Shown here: positions 19,910 through 64,000 of the stretch, piece after piece
How positions within the stretch are numbered: the first letter of the stretch is position 1
Layout of the letters: every line of letters begins with the position of its first letter
Notes under the pieces: model-generated
Databases searched by the model: none
What the model was told of the DNA's origin: nothing
The model's input: only the letters and a program-made list of their open reading frames with translations
NCBI GenBank assembly: GCA_965219665.1
Contig: CBDCOD010000017.1
Coordinates: forward strand, 6,069 to 70,068
Length of the DNA stretch: 64,000 nucleotides
From: Gammaproteobacteria bacterium
GTDB taxonomy: Bacteria > Pseudomonadota > Gammaproteobacteria > CAKMZV01
Direction: 5' to 3'
Made by a program: the position numbers and the translations under genes

Positions 19910-19913
19910 CACC

Positions 19914-19942
19914 ATTATAAAGGCAATGACTGGGAGGCTGAA
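19914..19942 (-). promoter_or_regulatory. Candidate sigma-70 promoter of rnpB
   Basis: Perfect TATAAT (19919 to 19914, minus sense) 6-7 nt upstream of the predicted mature 5' end. Weak -35 TTCAGC at a 17-bp spacing. Confidence 0.45.
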
Positions 19943-19993
19943 TCTTTACCGAGCATGCAAATGAGTTGCGTTCATCCTACCAATGGTGCTAAA

Positions 19994-20466
19994 ATGAAAC
20001 AACTTGTGAACGAATTTTATGGTAACTGGACACTATGTGTGCGCCCACAAAAACAGCAACACTGCTTAAAAGTGCTATCCTTTGCCAGCACAGGACTACT
20101 TGCAAATAATCTGATTACAGTTGATTCCGACCCCAATTTACACACTGTCGTCGTTGCTGGATCGCAGCAAAACCTTGGAGAAACAGTCGCTCCCTCCTCA
20201 ATAATCCAAAGCATCTTTAGTTACCCCTTTGACAATGTCCTAAGCTATCGCATCACCACAGGCAACAATCTATTTGCCATAGATCGCACCAGGCACCCAC
20301 TACTACCCCACCTGCTACTAACGGTGGCGGTAGTGGTGGCGGCAGCCGTCGCCGCAGCGGCGGCAGTGGTGGCTGTAGTCTGCACCATACGGCAACAACC
20401 GATTGGGTGCTCTGGCTACTCGTGCTGCTTAGTGTCGTTGCCTTACGCCGACGACGCTACAGTTAG
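19994..20466 (+). pseudogene. Frameshifted small ORF: cadherin-like module, Pro/Thr-Gly/Ser linker and GGC-type C-terminal sorting tail
   Basis: Frame 2 from ATG 19994 reads MKQLVNEF...NVLSYRITTGNNLFAIDRT. Near 20290-20310 the sense continues only in frame 1: APTTTPPATNGGGSGGGSRRRSGGSGGCSLHHTATTDWVLWLLVLLSVVALRRRRYS, then stop at 20464-20466. A strong terminator follows. The frame 1 segment has no start codon of its own (stop at 20230-20232). No Sec signal peptide is evident. Confidence 0.5.
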
Positions 20467-20551
20467 CGTTACTTGCCGCCACGAGCGTACAACAATCTGT
20501 GCAGTCCACCACCAGTACCACTGGTTAAAAAACCTGCTTAAAAACCTTGTT

Positions 20552-20584
20552 ACACTGCCCCCAGAGGGCAGTGTTTGTTTTTTT
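20552..20584 (+). terminator. Rho-independent terminator
   Basis: 9-bp GC-rich stem ACACTGCCC / GGGCAGTGT, 5-nt loop, then TTGTTTTTTT. It lies 85 nt after the sorting-tail stop codon and 27 nt before the glcB ATG. Confidence 0.75.
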
Positions 20585-20610
20585 ACTGTTTATATTGAAA
20601 TTGTAATACT

Positions 20611-22820: not shown

Positions 22821-25800
22821 TTAGATTTGAGTCTTTCTACTCATCTTCACAGTAGATAGATGATAGCGGCGGCGAGAAAGTAGTATTTTAAGCAGTGCGA
22901 GCAAGCAGAGCAGCAGTAAAGATGGGTCATAATCGCTGTCCAATATCAAGGCACAGCCACCACTTTCTTCACTTGAACGACTGTCTAAAACAATAAAGAC
23001 GTCTGTGTTTGCAACACCTACTAAGGAGAGAACATTGCCATTTAATCCCTTAGCTCTATCGTACGATCCAGCATTATAAGCGTCACTATCATTGATACCG
23101 CCATCTGTAATGCGAACAAGAATACACCGATTACCGCTGGTTAGTCCAGAAGAGTACAGTCCACTATCTGCCTCAGGGCAACTGCCATTGGCTAAGAGTG
23201 GTGCGCTGGATGTGGCATCACCTTGACTGGTGTCAAAATCGCGCCAACCTATTCCCAGTAGATACGTTCTTAACACTAAGGAGCCATTGGGTAGCTGGCT
23301 AGGTAAGCGAATTGTGGCTAACGCAATGCTACCAACATGACGAAGGCCTGCCATTTCCATGTCAATTAAACCTGTTCTATATTCAAATACGGGGTCTGCT
23401 ACATAGCCTGTTCCTCTACCTAAGCCGTTTAGGCTCTCAATGCTTTCTTCTGTTAGCACCAGCCCTGTAGAGAGTGCCATAGAGCGCGCAAAATAACCAG
23501 AGCGCGCAACGTTCTGTGACTCACTTAGTCTGTACGATGCGCTCTCAGTCCATATGATACGACGAATACTGGTACTCTCTTGTATTTCATCAGGCAGGCC
23601 GTCTTGCTCTGAGTCAATCAGTTGACTCACCTCTATTTGATTTGGCAGCACAGTCAATACCAGACTACCTCTGGACGCGGCAGTGATACCCTGAGCACTT
23701 CTACGGTGCACACTCACTGTAACTTCATATACACCCTCTGCAAGATTGCCAGGATTAAATATTATGCGCTGGCAAGATCCATGACCAGAACTCAGTAGGC
23801 CACCATGGCTTTCATGATGCGAGAGACAGAGTGCACTACCTGTTATGCGAGATACTATTTCTGTGGTTCCTATGGACCAGTCCAAGAAGGTCTGCGCTGA
23901 CTGCCAGCCACCTAAGCGGGCGGTTATCGTAACCGTTCCACCACCTGCTCTTATGGCTCGAACCTTGCCATTGCCGTTGCCTTCTTGGAATAGTTCTAAC
24001 CAGACTACTGGTTGGTTGTGGATTTGTGGATTTGTGCCGTCTAAAATTTCTTGCCCATCTCCGACACCATCGCCGTCTAAGTCACTATTAAACTGCGCAT
24101 TCACCACCCCTAAGCCCTGCAAATAGAATTCTACAGCGTTGCTTAAACCGTCGGTATCACTGTCTGCTGCACCGTTACTTATAGGGCTATTTGCATTGGT
24201 CCGAGAGTACCCTTGGCGCACTTCAATAATATCGGGCAAACCGTCACCATCTGTATCTGTTTCAGCTGTTAAGCCAGAGTTTGAGCTACAGCTGATGTTA
24301 TCAGATGGTATCGCTGGATTTGCATCCGCACAGCCAATCAGGGTCTCTATCGTATCAGGAATACGATTTCCGTTGATGTCTGTTTCAATATCTGCCTCAT
24401 GTGGATTGAGGTTGTTAGCAACTTCAAATACGTCTGGATAACCGTCAGCATCAGCATCACTTATGGCACTGACGCCCGTTATGCCAATACTGGCAAGATA
24501 GCCTTCAATCGCATTAGTAATACCGTTAGCATTACTATCACCTGCTCCATTCAAATACGGAGAGTCTGCATCGTTTATACCATTGGATAGAATATACTCT
24601 AAACCATCTGGCAGACCATCACCATCCGAGTCAAACGCTCCATCAGGAATGCCGTCATTGTTGCTATCTGCCACATTGCCAGCGCCTCGTTCTTCAAAGC
24701 GATTTTGTAGGCCATCGCCATCTGAATCCTCTACGTGATCAAAGACACTATCAAGATCTGTATCACGGTTATTTGGCGCAGTATTGAACTCCCGCAACTC
24801 TAAAATATTACTTAAACTGTCACCATCTGCATCTTCATCTGCATCGCTTAGCCCATTGTTATTTGTATCGCTTAGAGTGGCTGAGGTATTTGTTAGGTAG
24901 AATTCTTCACCGTCTGTCAGACCATCGCCATCAGTATCAGCACGATATGGATCAGTGCCTATCTGAACCTCTTCCAGATTAGTGAGCCCGTCTGAGTCAA
25001 AGTCTTCGGCACCATCATTTATACCGTCATTATCTGTGTCAGGGTCTGTGGGTAAGGCCGTAAGCGTTATGGCACGTGAGGTGGATGCAAATATATTCCA
25101 TTCAGCCCCATCGGATAGACCATCACCATCTGTGTCAGGATTTCTGGGGTTAATGCCCAAAAATAATTCAAACCCATCGGACAGACCATCATCATCTGTG
25201 TCTCCATTATGGTCTGAAATAATACCGGTTGCTGCATTGGAAGCGAGTAGGCTAAGCACGCTATCGCCTACAGCAGAAATAACGACGCTTTCTGTACTTT
25301 CGTCATTGCTATCTCCCAAAACGTCAAAACTAATGAGTGCACTACTGCTGCCTTGCTCTATGGTAGCAGAGTGTACGGTTGTGTAGTCGGCGCCCGCAGT
25401 AGCAGTTCCTGTGGTAATAATAGTGAAGTCAATTGCATTCTGAGTAAAGTTGAGGAATGGTATGGATACCTCTGCCTGTAGTGGAACGCCTTGCAGTTGT
25501 TCCTCAAACCCTGGCTCTACTCCGTGCTGAACAATAGCAACAGTAACTGGAATATGTGCTAAAGCCTCATTATCTATAATGATTACAGTCGCTGAGGATG
25601 TGAGGTTTATATCATCAATAATTGAATCAAATTCACTGGGTTGCGGTATCATACTGATTGTGGTTAATCCAACCACTACAGTCTCCCTGCCCTCTAATAG
25701 GGTATCATCTAATATTTCTATTGCGAGGCTGGCTGTGCTACGCCCATCTAAGATGTCATAACTGGCAGCGCCAGATGATGTGTTGCCAAGCACAAAATCT

Positions 25801-40800: not shown

Positions 40801-43800
40801 AACACAGCGGTTGTTTGTGCTGTACTGAAGTCAACACCAGGAACAGCACTACCACCTGACTGCCCTGTAGGATACTCAAGCGTTACATTAATCGTACTAC
40901 TGATTGCTTCACGATCAAGTTCTACAACCAGAGAAGCTGATGAACCCTCAGGAATTAAAGCGTTACCACTATTGCGCAGACTTAGTGCCAAATCGGAGTC
41001 GTTGTCTTGAATATTGATAGTTAGGGCAGAGGCATTTCCTGTTGTTAGCGCAGGCGACAGAACGCCCCCATACGTACCAGTACTTACAGAAATTTCAATG
41101 GTTTCAGGAATTACAGAGCCTTCTGCCAGTACATCATCTATGATGCTAACGCTGATTAATGCGGTGGTTTGGCCAGGTGCTAACGTAAAGACTGTATCTG
41201 CCAATACATAGTCAAAACCTGCAGTGTTTGTTGAGCTAATGCTGCGCTTAGCCGTACCACGCACTGTAAGTGGAACAACAATGTTCTCATGACCGCTATT
41301 GGCAACAAGCCCTTCATCAATATGCTCTAAAGTTAAACTTACAACAATGCTCTGTGCATTACCTTCATTAACATTAACAATTGGATCACCTAAACTACTT
41401 GCTAAAACTAATTGCACTGCACCAACAGCATTCAAACTATCAATAATAATCGTTTCTGTTGTGCCACGCTCTGCGGTTAGGACACCTCCAATACCAAAAG
41501 CCTCTAATATGCTGGGCAGCACATGTGTCACTTGCTGCACCTCTATAATGACCTGCTCGGAGTGCTCAAATAAATTGTCATTAGCCACTGGATACAGTCC
41601 ACTGAACTGACTACCCGTCAGTGATTCTGCACTGACAGATGGAATAGATACAGCAACTGTTGAATAATCTATACCTGCATCAGCCTGCCCTCGATAGGCT
41701 ATAACAAGACCTAAAGTTGACCCTGAACCGTTATAAACTGGCTCATTAGCATTATTAACTAATGCATAGACTACCCTAATAGGAACGGAGGTTGGTTGTT
41801 GCTCTCGACCAGCTGCTGGATTAATATTTAAGGAAACGCCAGCTATGATTTCATCATCAATAATGGAGGCAGTAACCGTATCTGTCAGTGCATCTACCTG
41901 ACTACGCGGGAAGCGGTTTGCTGTTTCTGTGGATAGCCGAATTTGCAAATTAAACTGCTCGGTTCCTTCTAAAAACTGATCATCTAACACAGCATACTCA
42001 AGAACTGTGGATATATTGCCTGTTGCAATGCTTACAACTATTTCATTACTACCCTGAAAATCAGTTCCATTCGTTGCATTACCTGAACCAGCAGAAATAG
42101 GCAACAGCTCTGCAACAAAAGACAGAGGAAACTCCGAACTATTGATATTGCTGAGTTCTACAACCAAACTTACTGATGAAGTACCTTCTATCCCAGCCGA
42201 CACCTGCCGCAATTCTGCAAGGACATTGTCATTGTCTGCTATCTCACCTGTAGCCTGCTGGTCAGCGCCCACACTATTAAAAACCGCTGCATTATTATCT
42301 GGATCTGTGATAGCCAGTGTGAATGTCTCGGTTGACTCAAACTCAATATCATCTAATACCTCAACTGCGTATTGAGCTGTACTCCTCCCCACACTAACTA
42401 AGAATTGTGCACCAATCGGATTAGCATAGTCTAAGCCTAAAGAGGCTGAGTCAGCTGGGTCACCAAGAGTAATATTTACTGCAATTGTGCTGTGCGTATA
42501 GTTTGGCAATGCCATCTCTACCTCAAATAGCACAGGCTCTTGAGGGTCCCCCGCTGCCACTTCCCGACCAGGAGACTGTTGCGTCGCATGAAGCCTCAAG
42601 TTATCATCATTTTCATCATCACGCACTTCAACAATATCTGTTCTACTGCTTGTAATATTTAAGGTAGAGCCTATGTATACGGCACCGACAGAGAAAAATT
42701 CTTCATTCGGCCACCCCTCAAAGGCAGGATCGTCTATAACCTGCCAGCTCTGAGTGGTTGCCGAGGCACTGTTGAGTATGCTATGCTGTATATCAGCCGA
42801 TTCGTTAAGATCTAAGTCTAAATCGGCTGACCCAGTCAATGGATCACCACCTAACTCAACATTACCTGAAAGCGTTACATTTGACTCAAAAAGAATACTG
42901 CTACCCGTCTGGTTTATAACGCGTTCACCCGCTGTTATTTTGCTTTCTAAGAATGTTTCAACGATGGCTGGCAGTGGTGTGCCATTTCCTTCATCAGCAT
43001 GCTGCAGTCTACGCACATTAACTAACACACCATCTACTTGCTCATCATCAGATGCCTGCACAATCACATCTGTTAGATTAGCCTCAGAGAGCGTGTATAA
43101 CCCACCTCCACCAACACTGGAATGACGAAGTGAAAAAGCACGTGTTGAGCCAACTAACGCAAAATCATCTACAACACGAACCACGACAGTGTGACTACTT
43201 AACACACCTGTAGCAAAATCCAAAGTAAGGCTGCCCGTTGAAAATGTTTTTCCATTGGAAGAAACTTCTAATCCTGGATAAAAATCATTACTTGTTGTAG
43301 TAATCCGAAGCGTTAATTGCACGTTAGAATTAGAAGGCACTGTCCTAATAGAAATCACGTAGGTACTTTGTGGCGCGGTACGTTCATCCACTTCTAAGAG
43401 AGTGGGCGTAATATCGAAGCCCGGAGCATCATCATTTACATTCTCTGCATCTAAGGTTTGTGCAACAACACGCTGCGGATCAGAGTAGACTAAGTCGGTG
43501 GTGGTCGCGATATGGCTTCTCACAGTAAATGTTTGTGTTGGGTCTGTTATGGGAGGTATGTCAGCAACACCTTGTAAGGTTGCTGTGACTGTAGTTTGCC
43601 AGTTTATCGGTGTAAATACAATATCCTGTGATATAAGCCCTGCATTAGATCCAACCCCAATTACTCCAAGCGCTGCACTACTAGATCGTACTGATACCGT
43701 CACCGTAGAAACAGGTTCTGTCCCTAACCGTACATCGAACACATCAAAAGTTCTCGTCTGTGTTGCCGTGCTGGGTCCATTATTGGAATCAAATACACTA

Positions 43801-46800
43801 TCCAGAACCCGCAAAGGTGTTGACTCTGTCAGCATAATAAGATGAGCAGTATCATCATCTATACTCGTACCTGTAAATTGTGCAGTGCGGATATTTGAAC
43901 CACTATACTGAGGAGCAGTCCCAGTAGATACTAATAATACAGTGAACGTCTGTGAACCATCATCTACATCGTCATCCACTGCCTGAACAGTTATAGTTCT
44001 CGTATCTGACCACGCGCCGCTCCCAGATGCAGCAGTGTTAAAGGTTATAGAAGATACGATAAGCCGCACTTCTAATGTTTTGCCGTTACTAAAAGCGTTG
44101 TAGTGTACCGTCGTATCCAATAATATATCTACTGGCTCAAAGGGTTGCGCTTGTAAGCGCATGTGGAAACTATCCGTAGTTTCTCCATCTTCGCGTACTT
44201 GAAGTGTTGGGTTTACTATAGCAGAAACGAGAATCCCTGCTTGATCATCATCCAATATACTTACTACAGCCGTTGCTTGCTGAGTCTGTAAGCCAGACCA
44301 ATGTGCTTCTGTATTGACATCTGCCTGAGCATCTACTGAACTTAATGCTTGTATAGAAAGCTGTTGCGTCTCGTCATCATAATAATCATCTATTGCATTA
44401 ATCGTAATGACCTGAGTAGTCAACCAAGAAGTACTCGGATATGCCTCAAATACTAATACTCGTGTACTTATACTCAATAAACCACCAATATGGTCATTAT
44501 CAAAACCCGAAGAAACCGTGACCCCAAAAGTAGAAATGGATAACGTTACCGTGCTTTCAGGCTGCGCATTAAGACGCATACCTAATGCAATCATGTTGGC
44601 GGAACCTGCCGCTAACGTTTCTCCTACGGCAAAGGCGGTGCTCGTAAAGGTAATACCTGCTGTATCATCATCAATGATGGTTACTGTGAGGGTTGCTCCT
44701 AAAAAGTCAGGGCTATTAAGATAGTTTGTATCTAATGAAGCCGCACTAAATGAACCAAAGACTATCTCATCATCCTCATCGATATCATCTTGCTGAGCTA
44801 CTACCGTAAAAGTTGTCCATACATCCCATGCTACCCTTGCAAATTCAATGCTTGAACTACTAAACACCATCTCACTATTTGTCAACCCGTTGGTGGTATA
44901 AAAAGCCGTCAGTGTAAGCGTTGTCTGTGGCTGGGAACGCAAACGCACAGCTACTGTTTGCGAAGAGCCTGCTTCGCTGATGGTTACAGATGAACTGGAG
45001 AACTCAAAACCAGCCAACTCATCATCCAAAGCAGTTACTACGACGCTGTCAATATCTAAGGCAGCATGGTAACCAGAAACAGGCGCACTAGATACAGAAA
45101 TTTGCAGCGTAGTAACTTGATCCTGATCATTCAAGGAGTCATCAACTGCTTGTACGGTAACGGTTTGTGTGGCTCTATAATTTTGTGGTGTAAAGGTGAG
45201 CACTACTTGTGTTGAAAATGTATTGAATGGTACGGCACCTGTTTCTGTAGAGCGAACCCCTACCTGTAAAACCCCAAAAATTGTCGCAACATCACTCGCT
45301 TTCGTGTTATCGGTTGAGGCTACCAACAACGTGATGGTTGAGGCTGGCTGGGTATCTACGCGCAAAGCAAATGCTTCCCTTGGATTAGTGATATCTTCCG
45401 TAACGGTTAGAGTAGTTGGTACTACCGTTACTCCTGCCTCATCCTCATCCAATATTGTTACAACAACTGATGCGGTATTAGATGCACTGTAATCAGCACC
45501 CCCTCCAGCTGTCCACGTAACAGTTGTTCTCTGAGTTCCCTCTTCAATAAAATTGTCAATAGCTTGAACAACTACCTGCTGAGGAATATTCCAATTTGAA
45601 CGAGTGAATACTAACTGTCCTGTATTGGTTTTTGCTTGTTGCGATGAATTATTATCGGGGCCAATAAAAGAATGCTCCAGTGATACGCTAAGGGTTACTG
45701 TGGATGGAGAAAGCAAATTGTCCGTATCAAAAGGCTTGGAAGTAAGGACTACTGTAAATGAATCCGTAGTAGGCCTACCACCTTCTAAACCGTCTTCACT
45801 CACTGTTAGCGAACTTGGACTAACCGTTATACTTCGCTCATCTACATCAATAACATCAACCAATATTTCCCGAACACCAAAAACCGATGCGTCTGCTGCA
45901 ATGGCTTCAATGATAACTGTCTGTGTATCATCATCTTCAAAATCATGGTATGCGGTAACTGTTACAGCCTGAGAAGTGAAACGCGGAGTGAATGCAGGAA
46001 CGGTGATCGATGCAATGACTTTAAGCTCTGTGCTAGGCGCACTATGTATAGAAAGGAAGTCTATCGTAATGGCGCTTGAGGTCTTAACACTCAGTGACAG
46101 ATCAAATGTTGCCGTAGTAGGTCCTGCCAAAGCCGTTTCATAAATCATGCCCAAATTAGTAGTTGATAATGAGAAAGCTGATTCATCATCATCAACTATT
46201 TCGATCAGATGTGTTGAGGAGCGTGTATTGATACCACTCCAGAAAGCATCAATAGTAGAATCCTCAATAGTGCTTGCAGCAGCTACTACGACCGTCTGTG
46301 TGCCATCATCAAAATCATCATCTACCGCCGTAATAACTATTGACTGCAAAGTGTTCCAACTATTGCTGGGGTATGGTGAAAATACAACACTGGTGGTGCT
46401 CAATACAATAGAGCCTGTAAAGGTGGCTGGCAGAACCGTGCCTGTAGAAAAATACACAGTCACTGTCGATTCCGGTTGTGTCGCTAAACGCACGAATAAG
46501 CTGTCCGTTGTGTTGGGCTCTGTGACAACCGGATTGCCCGATAACACAATACCTGCTGTATCGTTATCAATAATGGTTACCGTTAACGTACTTGACAAAA
46601 ATTGAGGATCATCAACATAACCGGCTGCCGTTGCTGATGCAATAAAATACACATCTACTGTCTCATCATCCTCATCAATGAAATCATCAAAAGCAGTTAT
46701 CGTAACAGTAACTGGATTAAATGCACTACTATCACTAAAACGAATAGTATTCGTACTGAATGTTAATTCACGTGTCGATTGACCTGAAAGCGTAGAGGTT

Positions 46801-49800
46801 GGAGAAAGAAATACCGTCATACCACTAACTGGCTCCGCCGTTAGCACCACAGTAAATGTGCTACCACTGCCCCCTTCTGTTACAGAGGCAGTAGAGCGAC
46901 TAAGACTATAGCCAGGACTCTCATCATCAATTACCTCAACAATAACATCTGATAAAGTCGTAGCAGCACTGTAACCAGAGTCCCCATTAACAACTGTCAG
47001 CGTCAGCGTCACAAAAACACCATCATCATTTGCCTGATCATCTATTGCCTCAACTGAGACCGTAATAGGCGTGTTCCAAGTCGCAGAAGTGAAACTCAAT
47101 AATATACTACTCTGACTATTCGTGCTTTGACCACTTAACTCTAACTGCGCAAGCCCTTGAACCTGTGTAGAAGCAACCGATAGCGTAACCGTAGATAATG
47201 GCTGCGTCTGTGGGCGAATCTCAAAAGTAGCCGACCTACTACTACCTGCCTCTTCTGTGATAATCAGCGATGTTGGAACAACTACAAAGCCTGCAACATC
47301 ATCATCTGTAACGGTGACCGTCAGTGTAACATTCTCACTTGAACCATAATCACCCCCACTGGCTGCTAAGCTAAAGGTGCTATACTGTGTATTATCAACT
47401 ACCTCATCATCATAGGCAGAGACCGTTACCGTAATAGAAGTACTCCAATTAGAAGTAGTAAAAACTATTCGAGCTGTAGATAAAGAGGACTGTATCGGAA
47501 TAACGCCTGATGTAAATGTATGCGCACTACTAACCTCAAGCGTAACATCTCCACCATATGGACGCGTAGCCAAACGAACCTCAGCAGTAGAAACCGACCC
47601 CCCTTCCGTAACCGTATGCTCCGTAGGCGCAATCTGTACCCCACGTACATCATCATCAATGGTCTCAAACCCACGTGCAGTGGGCGATAGCCCACTATAT
47701 AAAGCATCGGATGAAGCAACCGATAGCGTAACTGTCGCATTGCGGGTATCATCATCAAAATCATCATCTACTACCGTAATCGTAACACTCTGGAGCGTTT
47801 GCCAACTGTTAGCAGTAGCCGTAAAAGTCAATGAATCAACACTTAACGTTGCCTCTGGATCAGAGGATAAACTATCATCACTTAACAATACATTAACCGT
47901 AACCGTACTGAAGGGGCGCGTTGCTAAGCGAACCGTAAAGGTGGCTTGTGTCGCACTTGACTCATATAGGGTATCTGTACTTAACGCACTAACGACCAAA
48001 GCACTTTCATCATCATCTACTACCAATACCCCATGCGTAGAACTTACGCTATTTGCACCAGCCCAATGAGAAATCGTATTCAAGTCCGCATTAGCAACAA
48101 CTGCAGAGTCCGCCGTAACAACTACTGTCTGTGTGCCATCATCAAAATTATCATCTACCGCCGTAACAACTATTGACTGCAAAGTGTTCCAACTATTGCT
48201 GGGGTATGGTGAAAATACAACACTGGTGGTACTCAATATAATAGAGCCACCAACTGCAATTGAGCCCGTACTAAAACTTAACACCACTGTACTCTCAGGC
48301 TGCGCCGATAGCCGAACTAATAAACTATCTGTCGTATTAGGCTCCGTTACAACTGGACTTCCTGATAACTCAATACCTGCTGTATCATTGTCTACAACCG
48401 TTACCGTCAGAGTATCCCCTGAAAAATCCGCATTGCTTGCATAAGCACCATTGATGTTGTCCGTAGCAATCAAGAAAACTTGTATACTTTCATCATCCTC
48501 ATCAATGTCATCATTCACCGCTGTAACCGTTATCGAAACAGGCGTGCGAGCATTTGCACTGCTGAAAACAATAGTATTCGTACTGAATGTCAATTCACGT
48601 GTCGATTGACCTGAAAGCGTGGCTGATGGCGATAACGCAACCGTAGCACTACCCGGAGGATCCGCCGTTAGCACCACAGTAAAAATGCTACCAACGCCCC
48701 CTTCTGTTACAGAGGCAGTAGAGCGACTAAAACTATAGCCAGGCCTCTCATCATCAATTACCTCAACAATAACATCTGATAAAGTCGTAGCAGCACTGTA
48801 ACCAGAGTCCCCATTAACAACTGTCAGCGTCAGCGTCACAAAAACACCATCATCATTTGCCTGATCATCTATTGCCTCAACTGAGACCGTAATAGGCGTG
48901 TTCCAAGTCGCAGAAGTGAAACTCAATAATATACTACTCTGACTATTCGTGCTTTGACCACTTAACTCTAACTGCGCAAGCCCTTGAACCTGTGTAGAAG
49001 CAACCGATAGCGTAACCGTAGATAATGGCTGCGTCTGTGGGCGAATCTCAAAAGTAGCCGACCTACTACTACCTGCCTCTTCTGCGATAATCAGCGATGT
49101 TGGAACAACTACAAAGCCTGCAACATCATCATCTGTAACGGTGACCGTCAGTGTAACATTCTCACTTGAACCATAATCACCCCCACTGGCTGCTAAGCTA
49201 AAGGTGCTATACTGTGTATTATCAACTACCTCATCATCATAGGCAGAGACCGTTACCGTAATAGAAGTACTCCAATTAGAAGTAGTAAAAACTATTCGAG
49301 CTGTAGATAAAGAGGACTGTATCGGAATAACGCCTGATGTAAATGTATGCGCACTACTAACCTCAAGCGTAACATCTCCACCATATGGACGCGTAGCCAA
49401 ACGAACCTCAGCAGTAGAAACCGACCCCCCTTCCGTAACCGTATGCTCCGTAGGCGCAATCTGTACCCCACGTACATCATCATCAATGGTCTCAAACCCA
49501 CGTGCAGTGGGCGATAGCCCACTATATAAAGCATCGGATGAAGCAACCGATAGCGTAACTGTCGCATTGCGGGTATCATCATCAAAATCATCATCTACTA
49601 CCGTAATCGTAACACTCTGGAGCGTTTGCCAGCTGTTAACAGTAGCCGTAAAAGTCAATGAATCAACACTTAACGTTGCCTCTGGATCAGAGGATAAACT
49701 ATCATCACTTAACAATACATTAACCGTAACCGTACTGAAGGGGCGCGTTGCTAAGCGAACCGTAAAGGTGGCTTGTGTCGCACTTGACTCATATAGGGTA

Positions 49801-52800
49801 TCTGTACTTAACGCACTAACGACCAAAGCACTTTCATCATCATCTACTACCAATACCCCATGCGTAGAACTTACGCTATTTGCACCAGCCCAATGAGAAA
49901 TCGTATTCAAGTCCGCATTAGCAACAACTGCAGAGTCCGCCGTAACAACTACTGTCTGTGTGCCATCATCAAAATTATCATCTACCGCCGTAACAACTAT
50001 TGACTGCAAAGTGTTCCAACTATTGCTGGGGTATGGTGAAAATACAACACTGGTGGTACTCAATATAATAGAGCCACCAACTGCAATTGAGCCCGTACTA
50101 AAACTTAACACCACTGTACTCTCAGGCTGCGCCGATAGCCGAACTAATAAACTATCTGTCGTATTAGGCTCCGTTACAACTGGACTTCCTGATAACTCAA
50201 TACCTGCTGTATCATTGTCTACAACCGTTACCGTCAGAGTATCCCCTGAAAAATCCGCATTGCTTGCATAAGCACCATTGATGTTGTCCGTAGCAATCAA
50301 GAAAACTTGTATACTTTCATCATCCTCATCAATGTCATCATTCACCGCTGTAACCGTTATCGAAACAGGCGTGCGAGCATTTGCACTGCTGAAAACAATA
50401 GTATTCGTACTGAATGTCAATTCACGTGTCGATTGACCTGAAAGCGTGGCTGATGGCGATAACGCAACCGTAGCACTACCCGGAGGATCCGCCGTTAGCA
50501 CCACAGTAAAAATGCTACCAACGCCCCCTTCTGTTACAGAGGCAGTAGAGCGACTAAAACTATAGCCAGGCCTCTCATCATCAATTACCTCAACAATAAC
50601 ATCTGATAAAGTCGTAGCAGCACTGTAACCAGAGTCCCCATTAACAACTGTCAGCGTCAGCGTCACAAAAACACCATCATCATTTGCCTGATCATCTATT
50701 GCCTCAACTGAGACCGTAATAGGCGTGTTCCAAGTCGCAGAAGTGAAACTCAATAATATACTACTCTGACTATTCGTGCTTTGACCACTTAACTCTAACT
50801 GCGCAAGCCCTTGAACCTGTGTAGAAGCAACCGATAGCGTAACCGTAGATAATGGCTGCGTCTGTGGGCGAATCTCAAAAGTAGCCGACCTACTACTACC
50901 TGCCTCTTCTGCGATAATCAGCGATGTTGGAACAACTACAAAGCCTGCAACATCATCATCTGTAACGGTGACCGTCAGTGTAACATTCTCACTTGAACCA
51001 TAATCACCCCCACTGGCTGCTAAGCTAAAGGTGCTATACTGTGTATTATCAACTACCTCATCATCATAGGCAGAGACCGTTACCGTAATAGAAGTACTCC
51101 AATTAGAAGTAGTAAAAACTATTCGAGCTGTAGATAAAGAGGACTGTATCGGAATAACGCCTGATGTAAATGTATGCGCACTACTAACCTCAAGCGTAAC
51201 ATCTCCACCATATGGACGCGTAGCCAAACGAACCTCAGCAGTAGAAACCGACCCCCCTTCCGTAACCGTATGCTCCGTAGGCGCAATCTGTACCCCACGT
51301 ACATCATCATCAATGGTCTCAAACCCACGTGCAGTGGGCGATAGCCCACTATATAAAGCATCGGATGAAGCAACCGATAGCGTAACTGTCGCATTGCGGG
51401 TATCATCATCAAAATCATCATCTACTACCGTAATCGTAACACTCTGGAGCGTTTGCCAGCTGTTAACAGTAGCCGTAAAAGTCAATGAATCAACACTTAA
51501 CGTTGCCTCTGGATCAGAGGATAAACTATCATCACTTAACAATACATTAACCGTAACCGTACTGAAGGGGCGCGTTGCTAAGCGAACCGTAAAGGTGGCT
51601 TGTGTCGCACTTGACTCATATAGGGTATCTGTACTTAACGCACTAACGACCAAAGCACTTTCATCATCATCTACTACCAATACCCCATGCGTAGAACTTA
51701 CGCTATTTGCACCAGCCCAATGAGAAATCGTATTCAAGTCCGCATTAGCAACAACTGCAGAGTCCGCCGTAACAACTACTGTCTGTGTGCCATCATCAAA
51801 ATTATCATCTACCGCCGTAACAACTATTGACTGCAAAGTGTTCCAACTATTGCTGGGGTATGGTGAAAATACAACACTGGTGGTACTCAATATAATAGAG
51901 CCACCAACTGCAATTGAGCCCGTACTAAAACTTAACACCACTGTACTCTCAGGCTGCGCCGATAGCCGAACTAATAAACTATCTGTCGTATTAGGCTCCG
52001 TTACAACTGGACTTCCTGATAACTCAATACCTGCTGTATCATTGTCTACAACCGTTACCGTCAGAGTATCCCCTGAAAAATCCGCATTGCTTGCATAAGC
52101 ACCATTGATGTTGTCCGTAGCAATCAAGAAAACTTGTATACTTTCATCATCCTCATCAATGTCATCATTCACCGCTGTAACCGTTATCGAAACAGGCGTG
52201 CGAGCATTTGCACTGCTGAAAACAATAGTATTCGTACTGAATGTCAATTCACGTGTCGATTGACCTGAAAGCGTGGCTGATGGCGATAACGCAACCGTAG
52301 CACTACCCGGAGGATCCGCCGTTAGCACCACAGTAAAAATGCTACCAACGCCCCCTTCTGTTACAGAGGCAGTAGAGCGACTAAAACTATAGCCAGGCCT
52401 CTCATCATCAATTACCTCAACAATAACATCTGATAAAGTCGTAGCAGCACTGTAACCAGAGTCCCCATTAACAACTGTCAGCGTCAGCGTCACAAAAACA
52501 CCATCATCATTTGCCTGATCATCTATTGCCTCAACTGAGACCGTAATAGACGTGTTCCAAGTCACAGAAGTGAAACTCAATAATATACTACTCTGACTAT
52601 TCGTGCTTTGACCACTTAACTCTACCTGCGCAAGCCCTTGAACCTGTGTAGAAGCAACCGATAGCGTAACCGTAGATAATGGCTGCGTCTGTGGGCGAAT
52701 CTCAAAAGTAGCCGACCTACTACTACCTGCCTCTTCTGTGATAATCAGCGATGTTGGAACAACTACAAAGCCTGCAACATCATCATCTGTAACGGTGACC

Positions 52801-55800
52801 GTCAGTGTAACATTCTCACTTGAACCATAGTCACCCCCACTGGCTGCTAAGCTAAATTTGCTATACTGTGTATTATCAGCCACCTCATCATCATAGGCAG
52901 AGACCGTTACCGTAATAGAAGTACTCCAATTAGAAGTAGTAAAAACTATTCGAGCTGTAGATAAAGAGGACTGTATCGGAATAACGCCTGATGTAAATGT
53001 ATGCGCACTACTAACCTCAAGCGTAACATCTCCACCATATGGACGCGTAGCCAAACGAACCTCAGCAGTAGAAACCGACCCCCCTTCCGTAACCGTATGC
53101 TCCGCAGGCGCAATCTGTACCCCACGTACATCATCATCAATGGTCTCAAACCCACGTGCAGTGGGCGATAGCCCACTATATAAAGCATCGGATGAAGCAA
53201 CCGATAGCGTGACTGTCGCATTGCGGGTATCATCATCAAAATCATCATCTACTACCGTAATCGTAACACTCTGGAGCGTTTGCCAGCTGTTAACAGTAGC
53301 CGTAAAAGTCAATGAATCAACACTTAACGTTGCCTCTGGATCAGAGGATAAACTATCATCACTTAACAATACATTAACCGTAACCGTACTGAAGGGGCGC
53401 GTTGCTAAGCGAACCGTAAAGGTGGCTTGTGTCGCACTTGACTCATATAGGGTATCTGTACTTAACGCACTAACGACCAAAGCACTTTCATCATCATCTA
53501 CTACCAATACCCCATGCGTAGAACTTACGCTATTTGCACCAGCCCAATGAGAAATCGTATTCAAGTCCGCATTAGCAACAACTGTAGAGTCCGCCGTAAC
53601 AACTACTGTCTGTGTGCCATCATCAAAATTATCATCTACCGCCGTAACAACTATTGACTGCAAAGTGTTCCAACTATTGCTGGGGTATGGTGAAAATACA
53701 ACACTGGTGGTACTCAATATAATAGAGCCACCAACTGCAATTGAGCCCGTACTAAAACTTAACACCACTGTACTCTCAGGCTGCGCCGATAGCCGAACTA
53801 ATAAACTATCTGTCGTATTAGGCTCCGTTACAACTGGACTTCCTGATAACTCAATACCTGCTGTATCATTGTCTACAACCGTTACCGTCAGAGTATCCCC
53901 TGAAAAATCCGCATTGCTTGCATAAGCACCATTGATGCTGTCCGTGGCAATCAAGAAAACTTGTATACTTTCATCATCCTCATCAATGTCATCATTCACC
54001 GCTGTAACCGTTATCGAAACAGGCGTGCGAGCATTTGCACTGCTGAAAACAATAGTATTCGTACTGAATGTCAATTCACGTGTCGATTGACCTGAAAGCG
54101 TGGCTGATGGCGATAACGCAACCGTAGCACTACCCGGAGGATCCGCCGTTAGCACCACAGTAAAAATGCTACCAACACCCCCTTCTGTTACAGAGGCAGT
54201 AGAGCGACTAAAACTATAGCCAGGCCTCTCATCATCAATTACCTCAACAATAACATCTGATAAAGTCGTAGCAGCACTGTAACCAGAGTCCCCATTAACA
54301 ACTGTCAGCGTCAGCGTCACAAAAACACCTTCATCATTTGCCTGATCATCTATTGCCTCAACTGAGACCGTAATAGGCGTGTTCCAAGTCGCAGAAGTGA
54401 AACTCAATAATATACTACTCTGACTATTCGTGCTTTGACCACTTAACTCTAACTGCGCAAGCCCTTGAACCTGTGTAGAAGCAACCGATAGCGTAACCGT
54501 AGATAATGGCTGCGTCTGTGGGCGAATCTCAAAAGTAGCCGACCTACTACTACCTGCCTCTTCTGTGATAATCAGCGATGTTGGAACAACTACAAAGCCT
54601 GCAACATCATCATCTGTAACGGTGACCGTCAGTGTAACATTCTCACTTGAACCATAATCACCCCCACTGGCTGCTAAGCTAAAGGTGCTATACTGTGTAT
54701 TATCAACTACCTCATCATCATAGGCAGAGACCGTTACCGTAATAGAAGTACTCCAATTAGAAGTAGTAAAAACTATTCGAGCTGTAGATAAAGAGGACTG
54801 TATCGGAATAACGCCTGATGTAAATGTATGCGCACTACTAACCTCAAGCGTAACATCTCCACCATATGGACGCGTAGCCAAACGAACCTCAGCAGTAGAA
54901 ACCGACCCCCCTTCCGTAACCGTATGCTCCGTAGGCGCAATCTGTACCCCACGTACATCATCATCAATGGTCTCAAACCCACGTGCAGTGGGCGATAGCC
55001 CACTATATAAAGCATCGGATGAAGCAACCGATAGCGTAACTGTCGCATTGCGGGTATCATCATCAAAATCATCATCTACTACCGTAATCGTAACACTCTG
55101 GAGCGTTTGCCAGCTGTTAACAGTAGCCGTAAAAGTCAATGAATCAACACTTAACGTTGCCTCTGGATCAGAGGATAAACTATCATCACTTAACAATACA
55201 TTAACCGTAACCGTACTGAAGGGGCGCGTTGCTAAGCGAACCGTAAAGGTGGCTTGTGTCGCACTTGACTCATATAGGGTATCTGTACTTAACGCACTAA
55301 CGACCAAAGCACTTTCATCATCATCTACTACCAATACCCCATGCGTAGAACTTACGCTATTTGCACCAGCCCAATGAGAAATCGTATTCAAGTCCGCATT
55401 AGCAACAACTGTAGAGTCCGCCGTAACAACTACTGTCTGTGTGCCATCATCAAAATTATCATCTACCGCCGTAACAACTATTGACTGCAAAGTGTTCCAA
55501 CTATTGCTGGGGTATGGTGAAAATACAACACTGGTGGTACTCAATATAATAGAGCCACCAACTGCAATTGAGCCCGTACTAAAACTTAACACCACTGTAC
55601 TCTCAGGCTGCGCCGATAGCCGAACTAATAAACTATCTGTCGTATTAGGCTCCGTTACAACTGGACTTCCTGATAACTCAATACCTGCTGTATCATTGTC
55701 TACAACCGTTACCGTCAGAGTATCCCCTGAAAAATCCGCATTGCTTGCATAAGCACCATTGATGCTGTCCGTAGCAATCAAGAAAACTTGTATACTTTCA

Positions 55801-58800
55801 TCATCCTCATCAATGTCATCATTCACCGCTGTAACCGTTATCGAAACAGGCGTGCGAGCATTTGCACTGCTGAAAACAATAGTATTCGTACTGAATGTCA
55901 ATTCACGTGTCGATTGACCTGAAAGCGTGGCTGATGGCGATAACGCAACCGTAGCACTACCCGGAGGATCCGCCGTTAGCACCACAGTAAAAATGCTACC
56001 AACACCCCCTTCTGTTACAGAGGCAGTAGAGCGACTAAAACTATAGCCAGGCCTCTCATCATCAATTACCTCAACAATAACATCTGATAAAGTCGTAGCA
56101 GCACTGTAACCAGAGTCCCCATTAACAACTGTCAGCGTCAGCGTCACAAAAACACCTTCATCATTTGCCTGATCATCTATTGCCTCAACTGAGACCGTAA
56201 TAGACGTGTTCCAAGTCACAGAAGTGAAACTCAATAATATACTACTCTGACTATTCGTGCTTTGACCACTTAACTCTAACTGCGCAAGCCCTTGAACCTG
56301 TGTAGAAGCAACCGATAGCGTAACCGTAGATAATGGCTGCGTCTGTGGGCGAATCTCAAAAGTAGCCGACCTACTACTACCTGCCTCTTCTGTGATAATC
56401 AGCGATGTTGGAACAACTACAAAGCCTGCAACATCATCATCTGTAACGGTGACCGTCAGTGTAACATTCTCACTTGAACCATAATCACCCCCACTGGCTG
56501 CTAAGCTAAAGGTGCTATACTGTGTATTATCAACTACCTCATCATCATAGGCAGAGACCGTTACCGTAATAGAAGTACTCCAATTAGAAGTAGTAAAAAC
56601 TATTCGAGCTGTAGATAAAGAGGACTGTATCGGAATAACGCCTGATGTAAATGTATGCGCACTACTAACCTCAAGCGTAACATCTCCACCATATGGACGC
56701 GTAGCCAAACGAACCTCAGCAGTAGAAACCGACCCCCCTTCCGTAACCGTATGCTCCGTAGGCGCAATCTGTACCCCACGTACATCATCATCAATGGTCT
56801 CAAACCCACGTGCAGTGGGCGATAGCCCACTATATAAAGCATCGGATGAAGCAACCGATAGCGTAACTGTCGCATTGCGGGTATCATCATCAAAATCATC
56901 ATCTACTACCGTAATCGTAACACTCTGGAGCGTTTGCCAGCTGTTAACAGTAGCCGTAAAAGTCAATGAATCAACACTTAACGTTGCCTCTGGATCAGAG
57001 GATAAACTATCATCACTTAACAATACATTAACCGTAACCGTACTGAAGGGGCGCGTTGCTAAGCGAACCGTAAAGGTGGCTTGTGTCGCACTTGACTCAT
57101 ATAGGGTATCTGTACTTAACGCACTAACGACCAAAGCACTTTCATCATCATCTACTACCAATACCCCATGCGTAGAACTTACGCTATTTGCACCAGCCCA
57201 ATGAGAAATCGTATTCAAGTCCGCATTAGCAACAACTGTAGAGTCCGCCGTAACAACTACTGTCTGTGTGCCATCATCAAAATTATCATCTACCGCCGTA
57301 ACAACTATTGACTGCAAAGTGTTCCAACTATTGCTGGGGTATGGTGAAAATACAACACTGGTGGTACTCAATATAATAGAGCCACCAACTGCAATTGAGC
57401 CCGTACTAAAACTTAACACCACTGTACTCTCAGGCTGCGCCGATAGCCGAACTAATAAACTATCTGTCGTATTAGGCTCCGTTACAACTGGACTTCCTGA
57501 TAACTCAATACCTGCTGTATCATTGTCTACAACCGTTACCGTCAGAGTATCCCCTGAAAAATCCGCATTGCTTGCATAAGCACCATTGATGTTGTCCGTA
57601 GCAATCAAGAAAACTTGTATACTTTCATCATCCTCATCAATGTCATCATTCACCGCTGTAACCGTTATCGAAACAGGCGTGCGAGCATTTGCACTGCTGA
57701 AAACAATAGTATTCGTACTGAATGTCAATTCACGTGTCGATTGACCTGAAAGCGTGGCTGATGGCGATAACGCAACCGTAGCACTACCCGGAGGATCCGC
57801 CGTTAGCACCACAGTAAAAATGCTACCAACACCCCCTTCTGTTACAGAGGCAGTAGAGCGACTAAAACTATAGCCAGGCCTCTCATCATCAATTACCTCA
57901 ACAATAACATCTGATAAAGTCGTAGCAGCACTGTAACCAGAGTCCCCATTAACAACTGTCAGCGTCAGCGTCACAAAAACACCTTCATCATTTGCCTGAT
58001 CATCTATTGCCTCAACTGAGACCGTAATAGACGTGTTCCAAGTCACAGAAGTGAAACTCAATAATATACTACTCTGACTATTCGTGTTTTGACCACTTAA
58101 CTCTACCTGCGCAAGCCCTTGAACCTGTGTAGAAGCAACCGATAGCGTAACCGTAGATAATGGCTGCGTCTGTGGGCGAATCTCAAAAGTAGCCGACCTA
58201 CTACTACCTGCCTCTTCTGTGATAATCAGCGATGTTGGAACAACTACAAAGCCTGCAACATCATCATCTGTAACGGTGACCGTCAGTGTAACATTCTCAC
58301 TTGAACCATAGTCACCCCCACTGGCTGCTAAGCTAAATTTGCTATACTGTGTATTATCAACTACCTCATCATCATAGGCAGAGACCGTTACCGTAATAGA
58401 AGTACTCCAATTAGAAGTAGTAAAAACTATTCGAGCTGTAGATAAAGAGGACTGTATCGGAATAACGCCTGATGTAAATGTATGCGCACTACTAACCTCA
58501 AGCATAACATCTCCACCATATGGACGCGTAGCCAAAAGAACCTCAGCAGTAGAAACCGACCCCCCTTCCGTAACCGTATGCTCCGTAGGCGCAATCTGTA
58601 CCCCACGTACATCATCATCAATGGTCTCAAACCCACGTGCAGTGGGCAATAGCCCACTATATAAAGCATCGGATGAAGCAACCGATAGCGTAACTGTCGC
58701 ATTGCGGGTGTCATCATCAAAATCATCATCTACTACCGTAATCGTAACACTCTGGAGCGTTTGCCAGCTGTTTCCAGTAGCCGTAAAAGTCAATGAATCA

Positions 58801-61800
58801 ACACTTAACGTTGCCTCTGGATCAGAGGATAAACTATCATCACTTAACAATACATTAACCGTAACCGTACTGAAGGGGCGCGTTGCTAAGCGAACCGTAA
58901 AGGTGGCTTGTGTCGCACTTGACTCATATAGGGTATCTGTACTTAACGCACTAACGACCAAAGCACTTTCATCATCATCTACAACTCGAACCATGGAATC
59001 TGCACTCACACTGCTGGTCCCTGACCAGTGTAATCTGGTATTTGTACTCGCTCCAGCTTGAACAGTAGAACTGAGACTTACAGTTACGGTTGCATCACCA
59101 TCATCTATAACATTGTTTTGCGCAGTGACTGTAAATGACTGTGTTATATCCCAGTTAGCACTTGTAAATAATAGCTGATTTGTGCTCAGATTCAATGATT
59201 TTGTCGATTCTGGAGATAACACAACCTCTGAAGCAACAATCGTTAAAGAAACAGTGGACTCGGGTTGAGCGTCTAATACGACAAAAATAGCACTCTGAGC
59301 AGATGATTCTGATAACGAGAACGACTGAGGGGCTAGAGTGATTCCCGCTGTATCGTTGTCATCGATAGTAAATTGGTATACATCGCTCTCAAAATCAGGA
59401 ACATTAATATACGGTATGTTGCCTGATGGCGTAAATGTCAATGCATATGTTGTCTTATCTTCATCTATTGAGTCATCAATAGCAACGACCGTTACTGACT
59501 GCGAACTATTCCACCTAAAAGTATTTCCTGCGCCATCCGTAGAAAAGGCCAAACCAACAGAAGCACTTAACGTACCATTGGTCCCATGTATCACAGCATA
59601 CTGGTTGACGCTGCCATCAAGAAAATCTGGATGCAAAATAAGCGGCGACCCTGTGGGTGCTAAGCGCAAGGCTATATTAAAAATAGCTGTTCCGCCTGCC
59701 TCACTCACAGTTCCAGTTGTTGGACTAATGGTAAATCCGTGCTCATCATTATCAATAGCTGTTATTTCTGTGTCTTGATTCGCGGCAAGCCCCCGATAGA
59801 AGCCAGAACTTGTGGCGGCTGACTCATACGAAATGACACTGTTAACATTTTGATCATTGATAGCATCATCAATAGCGGTGACCAATACAGTCTGTGGGAT
59901 ATTCCAATTGCTTGAAGTAAAGTTTAACTGGACAACTGAGGTCGATCCATTTAGCATAATTTGATGGCTAAGATCACCCGCTAACGGCGTAGCTAGCAAC
60001 ACAATCTGCACAGTGCCAGTAGGCTGGGTTGCCAGAACTACACTCACTTGCGTTGTCAAATCACCATCTTCCGAAACAGAGGCAAATGTAGGAGATGGTA
60101 ACACTGCTGCAACATCATTGTCTATAACAACAACCTGAGTAGTCTGATTGCTGACAAAATTAATGTAGTCATTTCCTGATTGCTGACTGGCAACAGAGAT
60201 CGTTAACAGCTCAGTGTAGCTCACTCCCTCATCAATAAAATTGTCACGCCCAGCAAGTGTAACAAGCTGAGCAGTACTCCAATTGGCTGTGCTAAACGTC
60301 AAGCTATGTGTTGCATTGCCTTCAATCAACAGACTAGTTCCTCCATCGAAAAGCAGGGTAACCGTTCCTTCTGGAACAGAGGCAAGGCGCGTTTGCAGGG
60401 TAGCTGTTGTTGAGCTATCCTCCGATACAGTAAGCGGACTACTTGAAGTGAGTATGATACCTGCATCAGCCGTAGAGTTCAGCACGGACACCTGCGCATT
60501 CGCTGTTGCTGTTGCAACACCGTCGCCAACTGCAATGACAAAGGTATAACTAGAGGTGGATTCAAAATCTAATTCCTGATTAGCGTTTAGCCGCAAAACC
60601 CCTGTGCTGCTAATACTAAATCCTGCGGCTCCTGCACCGCTGAGTGCATACGACAGACTATCAGACTCGTCTGCGTCTGAAGCATTTATTTGCCCTACAA
60701 CCGTTATCACATTCGGAGGACTAAAGTCGTTTTCTAGTATGTTAAACTGTGTCACACCTATCGTGGGCGTATCGTTTACAGGTGTGACAACCACTAAAAA
60801 GGATCCTGTGCTTGAATCCACTCCTCCAAACAAGGTACTACCATCATCTTGCAACATATAACTAATAGTTGCAGTACCAAAGGAATTAGGGTTAAAAGAG
60901 AAGGTTAGTGTGGCATCTTCAAGGTCTTGTAGTATGCTACTACTGATGGTTGGTGTGCTCACCAGAATATCCGAATCATCTATAATATTTGTTAGACTCA
61001 ATGTAATGTTTTGCGTAACACCCGCATTATTATCATCAAAATCCGTTATAACCCCTGCAGAGACCACTGTATAGCTTGAATCCTCTGCTATGACTAATGA
61101 TGCACTATCTGCAGACGGCGCAAAATTAATCGTGCGTACTTGAATAACCACAGTGACCGTGGTGCTGTCCTCACCATTACGCAATGTCCCACCATCATCT
61201 TGCACCGTAATACTCAATGTGACATTGCCCGAGGAGCCTAATACTGGGTCAAAACGAAGTGCTGCTGTGGTTGCACCGACTGTGTACACAATGGTTGTAC
61301 CTGACTCTAACACACTCGTAGAACCACTTGTTTGGATACTAAAAGAGAACGGCTGCTGAGCCAAACCGCTCAAGCCATCACCTTCATCTAAGTCCTGCAG
61401 CACAACAATCTCTTGAACACCCAGGAAATCTTCAAATATTGCAGAGTTGCCATTTGCTACAACATTCGTCTGAGTAACATTGCTCAGTGATACAGTTGGA
61501 GCGTCATTAACAGGGAGCACAGGTACTAAAAGATATGCCGTAGTTGTCGATACACCATCTGATAAACCAACCGTAATGGTCGCAGTGCCTGAGAAATCCG
61601 CCGGTGGAGTATAACCAATAGGTATTTGTTGTATGCCCGTTGAGACAGCACTAATCTGACCATCTATCTCAACAGCGCCCGTGGATACTGTAAGAGACCA
61701 TGCACTGCTGCTAAACGCCTCACCGTCCAAGTCAAATCCACTTAAGGTTATAGCACGTGCTAACGAGGCATCTTCGTTGAAAACGTTCGTAACTGTTGAG

Positions 61801-64000: not shown

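Follow-up and report, generated by a model that had tools for sequence, protein, structure and literature searches.

A 41-kb gammaproteobacterial gene for a giant modular calcium-binding protein with a JDVT-CTERM-like C-terminal tail

Introduction

How might a Gram-negative bacterium export and anchor a protein of about 14,000 residues? The question is raised by a 64,000-nucleotide stretch of DNA from a member of the Gammaproteobacteria (contig CBDCOD010000017.1 of assembly GCA_965219665.1, positions 6,069 to 70,068; hereafter the window), the minus strand of which carries a single open reading frame (ORF) of 41 kb that runs past the window edge. A preliminary description had read this ORF as the gene of a fibre-like, calcium-binding extracellular protein and had left its export and anchoring open. 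The giant adhesins of Gram-negative bacteria for which biogenesis has been worked out, namely LapA, MpIBP and SiiE, are type I-secreted RTX proteins (PMC12153261). Herein we describe the domain architecture of the giant protein, a tandem amplification within its gene and a putative sorting signal at its C-terminus, and we weigh the routes by which such a protein might reach the cell surface.

Results

Frame 2 of the minus strand is free of stop codons from 63998 to 22824, a distance of 13,725 sense codons, and closes with TAA at 22821-22823 (Table 1; residue 1 of the protein is the codon at 63996-63998). At the base composition of the ORF the probability of a stop is 0.058 per codon, such that about 802 stops, or one per 17 codons, would be expected where none is found (log10 P(no stop) of approximately -359); a chance open frame is thereby excluded, and the uninterrupted frame of the preliminary description is confirmed. 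The giant ORF is a real coding sequence. Its relative synonymous codon usage correlates with that of 17 neighbouring genes (r=0.81) and its G+C content (0.43-0.47) is similar to that of flanking housekeeping genes. Opposite-strand ORFs of 100-200 aa recur every 1,827 nt and are by-products of the 1,827-nt repeats described below. Because the frame stays open to the window edge, the nominal TTG start at 63965 is merely the first start-type codon inside that edge, as had been suspected; a protein of a close relative (P0051, 759 aa) indeed continues for approximately 400 residues further upstream. On the basis of P0051 the full protein would comprise ~14,100 aa and ~1.5 MDa. It had been placed among the largest bacterial proteins, which overstates the case: proteins of at least 10,000 aa, termed 'large' by West-Roberts et al. 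(2023, bioRxiv 10.1101/2023.11.21.568195), are distributed over many phyla, with predictions of up to 85,804 aa in the same study. The giant gene is therefore large, not record-sized.

The visible portion of the protein has a mass of 1.44 MDa and a pI of 4.05, with 1,800 Asp and Glu residues against 406 Lys and Arg residues, just 30 of them Lys. Its most abundant residues are T (12.0%), S (11.9%), V (10.1%), A (8.7%), L (8.6%) and D (7.9%); an earlier characterization as rich in D, E, T, S and V thus holds for T, S, V and D and fails for E, which at 5.2% is not enriched. Lys (0.2%) and Cys (0.06%) are scarce, and all eight Cys residues lie within the final 500 residues, none of them before aa 13223.

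The bulk of the protein consists of Calx-beta-type modules, which we delimited with iterated custom hidden Markov models (HMMs); the protein was also compared with itself by BLASTP in 200-aa chunks. Altogether 95 such modules, 47 of a class A and 48 of a class B, succeed one another every 121-123 aa from aa 1189 to aa 12917. Class B is canonical: its consensus (...GSATAGADY...VIDDSLLEGTE...) contains both the G-x-A-x-x-G-x-D-[YF] and the DD...E..E motifs, and the Pfam Calx-beta model (PF03160, cut-off 27 bits) scores 170.6 bits in aa 5000-9999 (E=1.5e-50) and 155.5 bits in aa 10000-13725 (E=7.4e-46). Class A keeps an acidic DDD.DDD cluster and barely reaches the same cut-off (27.1 bits vs 27). 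HMM iterations seeded from either class recruit the other, hhalign pairs the two classes at 85% probability, and a class A profile finds the Calx-beta domains of NCX1 in the PDB (E=6e-6); therefore, class A is a relative of Calx-beta. The modules are followed by a TSP3-type region, in which TSP3_bac (PF18884) scores 113.5 bits against a cut-off of 25, over 9 stretches, and which holds one Cys pair (13223/13237).

The N-terminal side is best viewed together with P0051, the last ~360 residues of which are 95% identical to window aa 1 to ~370, so that window aa 1 corresponds approximately to aa 401 of P0051. Upstream of this point P0051 contains a hydrophobic leader (LLPVVVLSSAMLSSLDA, followed by AAGG) and NHL repeats. 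By homology with this close relative, a signal-peptide-like segment and the remainder of the NHL beta-propeller, whose last blade opens the window, probably lie upstream of the window. Between the blade and the class A modules (aa 28-1178), six cadherin/Ig-like modules were detected with Pfam or custom HMMs, and approximately three more are suggested by spacing only (aa ~125-228, 441-560 and ~955-1075). Assignments within aa 28-560 are based on a weak Big_9 match, custom HMMs and a tandem-95 repeat match in P0051. Further along, Cadherin (PF00028) is above its cut-off in one module, aa 1098-1172 (35.8 bits vs 28.8), to which a custom HMM ties three more. With 95 Calx-type and 6-9 cadherin/Ig-like modules, the more than 100 modules counted in the preliminary description were counted correctly, and the HMM parsing that it had called for puts Calx-beta, TSP3_bac and Cadherin all above their Pfam cut-offs. 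The four module classes that it listed also exist, except that the TSP3 units are short Ca-binding motifs rather than beta-sandwiches. Overall, the domain content supports the giant, modular, Ca-binding extracellular fibre that had been proposed.

Within the cadherin/Ig-like region lies a Cys-free C-type-lectin-like domain (CTLD). Direct searches with this domain gave no Pfam match at E<=1 and no phmmer match in the PDB at E<=10, and a word-index search with the region found no homologue. An exhaustive HMMER search placed the region in a ~230-aa unit that is repeated 3-9 times in proteins of 2,400-7,800 aa (P0063-P0068, ~29% identity), and the copy in P0068 passes the Pfam Lectin_C model (PF00059; 26.2 bits vs 22.6). 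A profile built from 14 homologous copies matched, in the PDB, C-type lectin domains almost exclusively (Dectin-1, E=8e-6). Similarly, among the 50 PDB fold matches listed for an AlphaFold2 model of low confidence (predicted local distance difference test, pLDDT, 54), all were CTLDs, with template modelling (TM) scores of ~0.5 normalised to the target. The lectin-like insert noted previously is thus real. The domain is devoid of the conserved disulfide cysteines, and the alignment shows no EPN/QPD-WND pair; with the canonical cysteines and the sugar/Ca motifs absent, carbohydrate binding cannot be inferred for it. In P0063-P0068 the domain forms part of a ~390-aa unit (Ig-like plus Cys-free C-type-lectin-like) present in 3-9 tandem copies, for which Pfam has no model of its own. 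FG-GAP repeats also occur in P0067 and P0068, and He_PIG repeats in P0066.

The C-terminus contains an Ig-like beta-sandwich and a further domain that looks like a divergent relative of choice-of-anchor U rather than a scored member of that family (NF041766, cut-off 32 bits; 18.5 bits, E=0.0027). The corresponding domain of a homologue, P0006, reaches 32.5 bits and aligns over it. An AlphaFold2 model of the C-terminal 600 aa (pLDDT 56) returned only generic Ig-like tandem matches in a fold search (TM ~0.13). These final 600 residues have homologues of 33-37% identity among complete proteins of ~1,000 aa from Woeseiaceae and related metagenomes (P0001-P0012), which are laid out as a signal peptide, 2-3 Calx-beta modules, TSP3 repeats, the homologous C-terminal domain and a helix with an Arg tail. 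The best C-terminal match lies in a Thiomicrospira metagenome-assembled genome (locus L085, OZ239628.1) and is colinear over 958 residues at 43% identity. There (L085, 1-11953) the homologous ORF remains open for at least 3,983 codons to the locus edge and keeps the order of Calx-beta, TSP3 and C-terminal domain; its tail has poly-Gly and two Cys residues and scores 24.3 bits on JDVT-CTERM.

The last ~45 residues of the giant protein read GG-C-ALILDSDY-DP-SLLLLCLLALLKILLS-RRR-YHLSTVKMSRKTQI, a tail that the preliminary description did not flag. JDVT-CTERM (NF033191, cut-off 27 bits) scores 28.2 bits on the last 75 aa alone and 23.1 bits within a 1,000-aa query, and no other NCBIfam family was reported for these 75 residues at a maximum E-value of 10; the tails of P0013 and L085 match it as well. 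This signal is defined (Haft 2023, bioRxiv 10.1101/2023.06.07.544157) by an invariant single Cys with a DP nine residues further on, by a Leu-rich helix and by an Arg cluster, and the tail presents C13682, D13691-P13692 at +9, the Leu-rich helix SLLLLCLLALLKILLS and RRR. In the same study its presumed processing enzyme, MrtJ, a CPBP/Rce1-type intramembrane protease, is encoded adjacent to the client in 16 of 17 cases. For the related signal MYXO-CTERM, Cys-dependent cleavage by the myxosortase MrtX has been demonstrated experimentally (Guo, Haft and Wall 2025, PMC11980579), and lipidation and type II secretion are predicted to accomplish surface display of MYXO-CTERM proteins (PMC11980579). 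No conserved sorting-enzyme neighbour was seen beside the homologues P0003, P0011, P0013 and L085. In another locus (L083, 5499-6398) an OmpA-like beta-barrel gene directly follows a Woeseiaceae-type ~1,000-aa homologue, and in P0004 the two are fused or read through; this barrel may be an outer-membrane partner. No OmpA-like beta-barrel gene follows the giant gene of the window.

Within the class A region, self-BLAST revealed a 12.7-kb array of cassettes that had also gone unflagged. Each cassette spans 1,827 nt (609 aa, five class A modules). Six tandem copies are >99% identical, with 1-12 nt of departure from the consensus in each and no difference between copies 5 and 6, and a seventh, diverged copy shares 72% amino-acid identity with the others. 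Tandem Repeats Finder reported nothing on the array, since the 1,827-nt period exceeds the limit of the tool. The six-copy array is the product of recent amplification or of concerted evolution, and it is also the part of the gene most exposed to assembly error. A second protein of the close relative (P0062, 5,459 aa, 97% identical) aligns colinearly to window aa 404-5850, interrupted by a single gap, and thus the array length is reproduced in another assembly. From an ungapped comparison the relative seemed to have one cassette fewer; we rejected this reading, as the BLAST alignment is colinear and the apparent loss of register comes from a 1-aa gap.

A T8 run on the coding strand is the sole homopolymer of at least 8 bases that the ORF contains. 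The frame of P0051 stops exactly at this site (after ...DLFF), as expected of a T7 tract, while P0062 begins at the next Met after the break and ends out of frame. These frame breaks in the relative could be homopolymer or contig-end errors of long-read assembly, marks of a pseudogene, or slipped-strand phase variation. As to transcription of so long a gene, RfaH ops-like motifs were not above shuffled sequence (6 vs 3.0 +/- 1.9). Intragenic terminator-like sites were weak and fell slightly short of their numbers in shuffled sequence (9 vs 13.0, 8 vs 13.8), which favours neither the presence nor the absence of anti-termination.

Other genes of the window are listed in Table 1. A bufferin-type operon for a ribosomally synthesized and post-translationally modified peptide (RiPP) comprises a Cys-rich precursor-like ORF, read by eye as DUF2282/BufA-like (no NCBIfam model matched it), together with a BufB maturase, a DUF2063 partner, an ECF-type sigma factor and an ORF that could encode the anti-sigma factor of the latter. 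Beside it lies the gene of a lipoprotein-like protein that is probably another Ca-binding envelope protein in the neighbourhood of the giant gene. The RNase P RNA overlaps both the start of a TauE ORF and the 5' third of a 323-aa ORF; this third is probably non-coding.

Table 1. Features of the giant gene and other genes in the window (positions in the 64,000-nt window; residues of the giant protein in its own numbering)
Feature	Position	Residues	Strand	Basis or remark
Giant ORF	22821..63998		minus	5'-incomplete, runs past window edge; 13,725 sense codons + TAA
Last NHL beta-propeller blade	63918..63998	1-27	minus	PF01436 NHL; weak NCBIfam ScyF NHL match
N-proximal cadherin/Ig-like modules	62319..63917	28-560	minus	detected at aa 28-111, 229-335, 336-440
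T8 run, coding strand	62878..62885		minus	ORF nt 1114-1121; no other homopolymer in ORF reaches 8 bases
Cys-free C-type-lectin-like domain	61809..62306	~565-730	minus	insert in cadherin/Ig-like region; family profile and fold searches
Cadherin-like modules	60465..61811	730-1178	minus	detected at aa 730-830, 834-954, 1078-1175
47 class A modules, ~122 aa each	43029..60440	1189-6962	minus	divergent Calx-beta without G-x-A-x-G-x-DY motif
Six tandem copies of 1,827-nt cassette	48024..58985		minus	self-BLAST
Seventh, diverged cassette copy	46197..48023		minus	self-BLAST
48 class B canonical Calx-beta modules, ~123 aa each	25224..43028	6999-12917	minus	Pfam and HMM iteration
TSP3-type Ca-binding repeats	24039..25211		minus	12 DxDxDG motifs in aa 12933-13314
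Ig-like beta-sandwich and divergent choice-of-anchor U-like domain	22974..24038	~13321-13675	minus	two Cys pairs
JDVT-CTERM-type sorting tail	22866..22964	13679-13711	minus	33 residues; GG-C-ALILDSDY-DP-SLLLLCLLALLKILLS-RRR
RNase P RNA, bacterial class A, full-length	19547-19906		minus	302 bits
323-aa ORF	19643-20614		plus	no family match
280-aa FGE-sulfatase/GldK-PvdO-EgtB-type protein	10530-11372		minus	NCBIfam matches all far below cut-offs
444-aa lipoprotein-like protein	3705-5039		minus	...LLGC...; very acidic D-rich middle, DxDxDG-like runs, two DUF5666 repeats
Bufferin-type RiPP operon	402-3417		minus
Cys-rich precursor-like ORF, 95 aa	3130-3417		minus	signal peptide; ...EKCAGVSKAGKNDCG...HGCAGQ...
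BufB MNIO maturase	2225-3115		minus	NF050167, 326.8 bits vs 310
DUF2063 partner	1477-2301		minus
ECF-type sigma factor	1004-1525		minus
Unannotated 201-aa ORF	402-1007		minus

Discussion

The observed domain architecture, Ca-binding motifs and tail, along with the lack of RTX motifs and of type I secretion system (T1SS) genes on the 3' side, incline us, by a modest degree, to regard the giant protein as a Ca-stiffened, Sec-exported surface fibre whose C-terminus is processed by an MrtJ-type protease and whose N-terminus is distal. Export would proceed N-terminus first via Sec, until the C-terminal helix and Arg cluster retained the protein in the inner membrane. By analogy with MYXO-CTERM and myxosortase, the conserved Cys would then be modified and the tail cut off by an MrtJ-type CPBP/Rce1-like intramembrane protease, leaving the mature protein anchored to the cell via its C-terminus. 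The Calx-beta, cadherin and TSP3 sites would bind Ca2+ and so keep the chain extended; if each module measures ~4-5 nm, as is established for cadherin and Calx-beta-type domains, the fibre would be ~0.4-0.5 um long. The NHL propeller and the lectin-like domain would sit at the distal tip as a ligand-binding end, and unequal recombination in the cassette array would vary fibre length. Export and anchoring, left open previously, are thus no longer fully so, given a tail that scores 28.2 bits against 27 and the absence of RTX motifs and of 3'-side T1SS genes.

Several observations weigh against this proposal. The JDVT-CTERM score is borderline, falling to 23.1 bits when the tail sits in a 1,000-aa query, and the tail helix has a second Cys (13698) where the published signal has one. 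No MrtJ/CPBP gene (NF033192) was found among the ORFs of window positions 1-22800, the 3' side of the gene, where the nearest gene encodes malate synthase G, convergent and 36 nt away; nor does a CPBP gene occur downstream of the closest homologue, L085. Only P0051, whose start codon is uncertain, shows the signal-peptide-like segment and the remainder of the propeller, and in that close relative the gene is split by frameshifts (P0051, P0062). Both AlphaFold2 models are of low confidence (pLDDT 54-56), and a 1.5-MDa Sec substrate would still have to cross the outer membrane.

How far do these points favour other explanations? A somewhat unlikely variant would keep the fibre and change its route: the helix could be a permanent inner-membrane anchor, or the tail could serve a rhombosortase, an exosortase-like enzyme or a lipoprotein-type pathway, its likeness to JDVT-CTERM being only compositional. 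Consistent with this are the borderline scores, the lack of an adjacent CPBP gene on the observed 3' side of both the window gene and L085, and the OmpA-like beta-barrel after the homologue in L083 and P0004. In addition, the Woeseiaceae homologues end in a Cys-free GSGSxGP-helix-RRR tail after the homologous domain, which fits the 'choice-of-anchor' idea of one domain combined with different anchors. A compositional likeness, however, accounts poorly for a Cys and DP at the exact published +9 spacing followed by a Leu-rich helix and an Arg cluster, for JDVT-CTERM as the sole family reported for the tail, and for the matches of the P0013 and L085 tails to the same model.

A type I-secreted RTX adhesin of the Bap/LapA/MpIBP/SiiE kind would leave the cell C-terminus first via ABC/MFP/TolC, held by an N-terminal plug and with its ligand domains near the C-terminus. 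The extender does resemble those adhesins in being giant, acidic, Ca-binding and built of tandem beta-sandwiches, with Calx-beta/cadherin-like modules as in LapA and SiiE (PMC12153261). Yet the giant protein contains zero GGxGxD nonapeptide motifs and no HemolysinCabind match, its C-terminus is a transmembrane helix with an Arg cluster, with which a T1SS signal is incompatible, P0051 of the relative has a hydrophobic leader at its N-terminus, and window positions 1-22800 hold no ABC/MFP/TolC or LapG/LapD genes. This explanation is largely refuted, and we consider it extremely improbable. We also judge it quite improbable that the giant ORF is non-functional as assembled, be it through a wrong cassette copy number, as a decaying pseudogene or as a phase-variable gene that is often off. 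An intact 41-kb frame would not survive decay, codon usage is like that of the neighbours, and a single T8 in 41 kb is near chance (~2 expected by our estimate). It is true that 11 kb of >99%-identical tandem repeats, two copies of them identical, is hard to assemble, but the relative aligns in the same order along the whole array, one gap aside, so that the copy number is reproduced. Likewise, the gene lies in pieces in this 95-97%-identical relative, P0051 ending at the T8 and P0062 out of frame, but such breaks are typical of homopolymer or contig-end errors in long-read assemblies. A further point on the side of a non-functional ORF is that its C-terminal 600 aa are without a close copy in the protein database searched.

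Set beside known systems, the giant protein is an extreme case of known kinds, namely of Calx-beta/TSP3 surface proteins with a C-terminal sorting signal. It shares with the JDVT-CTERM/MrtJ system the Cys, the DP nine residues on, the Leu-rich helix, the Arg cluster and a Pseudomonadota host, and differs in the second helix Cys, the sub-cut-off score in a long query and the lack of a 3'-side MrtJ; we found no published description of a JDVT-CTERM client near ~14,000 aa. With LapA, MpIBP, SiiE and FrhA it has in common megadalton size, an acidic, Ca-rigidified tandem beta-sandwich extender with Calx-beta/cadherin-like modules, a lectin-type ligand domain and an origin in marine or environmental Gammaproteobacteria. 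Unlike them, it has no RTX repeats, T1SS signal or (on its 3' side) T1SS genes, and combines a Sec-type leader (in the relative) with a C-terminal membrane tail. Its predicted polarity is the reverse of that of T1SS RTX adhesins, with the C-terminus at the cell and the N-terminus distal. 

The order of parts resembles that of BapP of Pseudoalteromonas tunicata, a protein of 1,600 aa that is predicted to have a Sec signal and combines an N-terminal beta-propeller with 12 Calx-beta-like/BIg_9 sandwiches; BapP is Ca-dependent and required for biofilm (PMC12153261). Both have a leader, a beta-propeller and sandwiches of Ig/BIg_9 and Calx-beta type, a likeness of architecture; both come from a marine gammaproteobacterium, and the export route is equally unclear. 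BapP, in contrast, is nine times shorter, and no TSP3 region, lectin domain or sorting tail has been described for it. The Woeseiaceae-type proteins and L085 match the giant protein at 33-43% identity in a homologous C-terminal cassette that runs from Calx-beta and TSP3 through the Ig-like domain and choice-of-anchor U to the helix/Arg tail. L085 additionally shares the very long ORF and a Cys-containing tail, whereas the Woeseiaceae-type proteins contain no more than 2-3 Calx-beta modules and end in a tail devoid of Cys. In the parts seen, neither has a class A array, a lectin domain or a cadherin region.

The comparison invites a broader, speculative and on the whole unlikely idea, that of a third route for Gram-negative giant adhesins. 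The 1.5-MDa protein would be exported by Sec, held by a C-terminal Cys-tag, lipid-modified, clipped by an MrtJ-type CPBP protease and displayed C-in/N-out, with recombination-tuned length and possibly a T8 switch.

For giant genes in general, the cassette array provides a clean example of recent module amplification. It also carries a warning for assemblies, since a giant gene of this sort appears whole or broken according to how copy number and homopolymers are called. For the biology of giant adhesins, the protein follows an RTX-like extender logic, but its Cys-containing sorting tail and the Sec-type leader found in the relative are marks of a different pathway. Provided that the protein is expressed and exposed at the surface, how a 14,000-residue periplasmic intermediate passes the outer membrane becomes a concrete question, and the newly described CPBP 'myxosortase-like' enzymes would have in it a client of extreme size.

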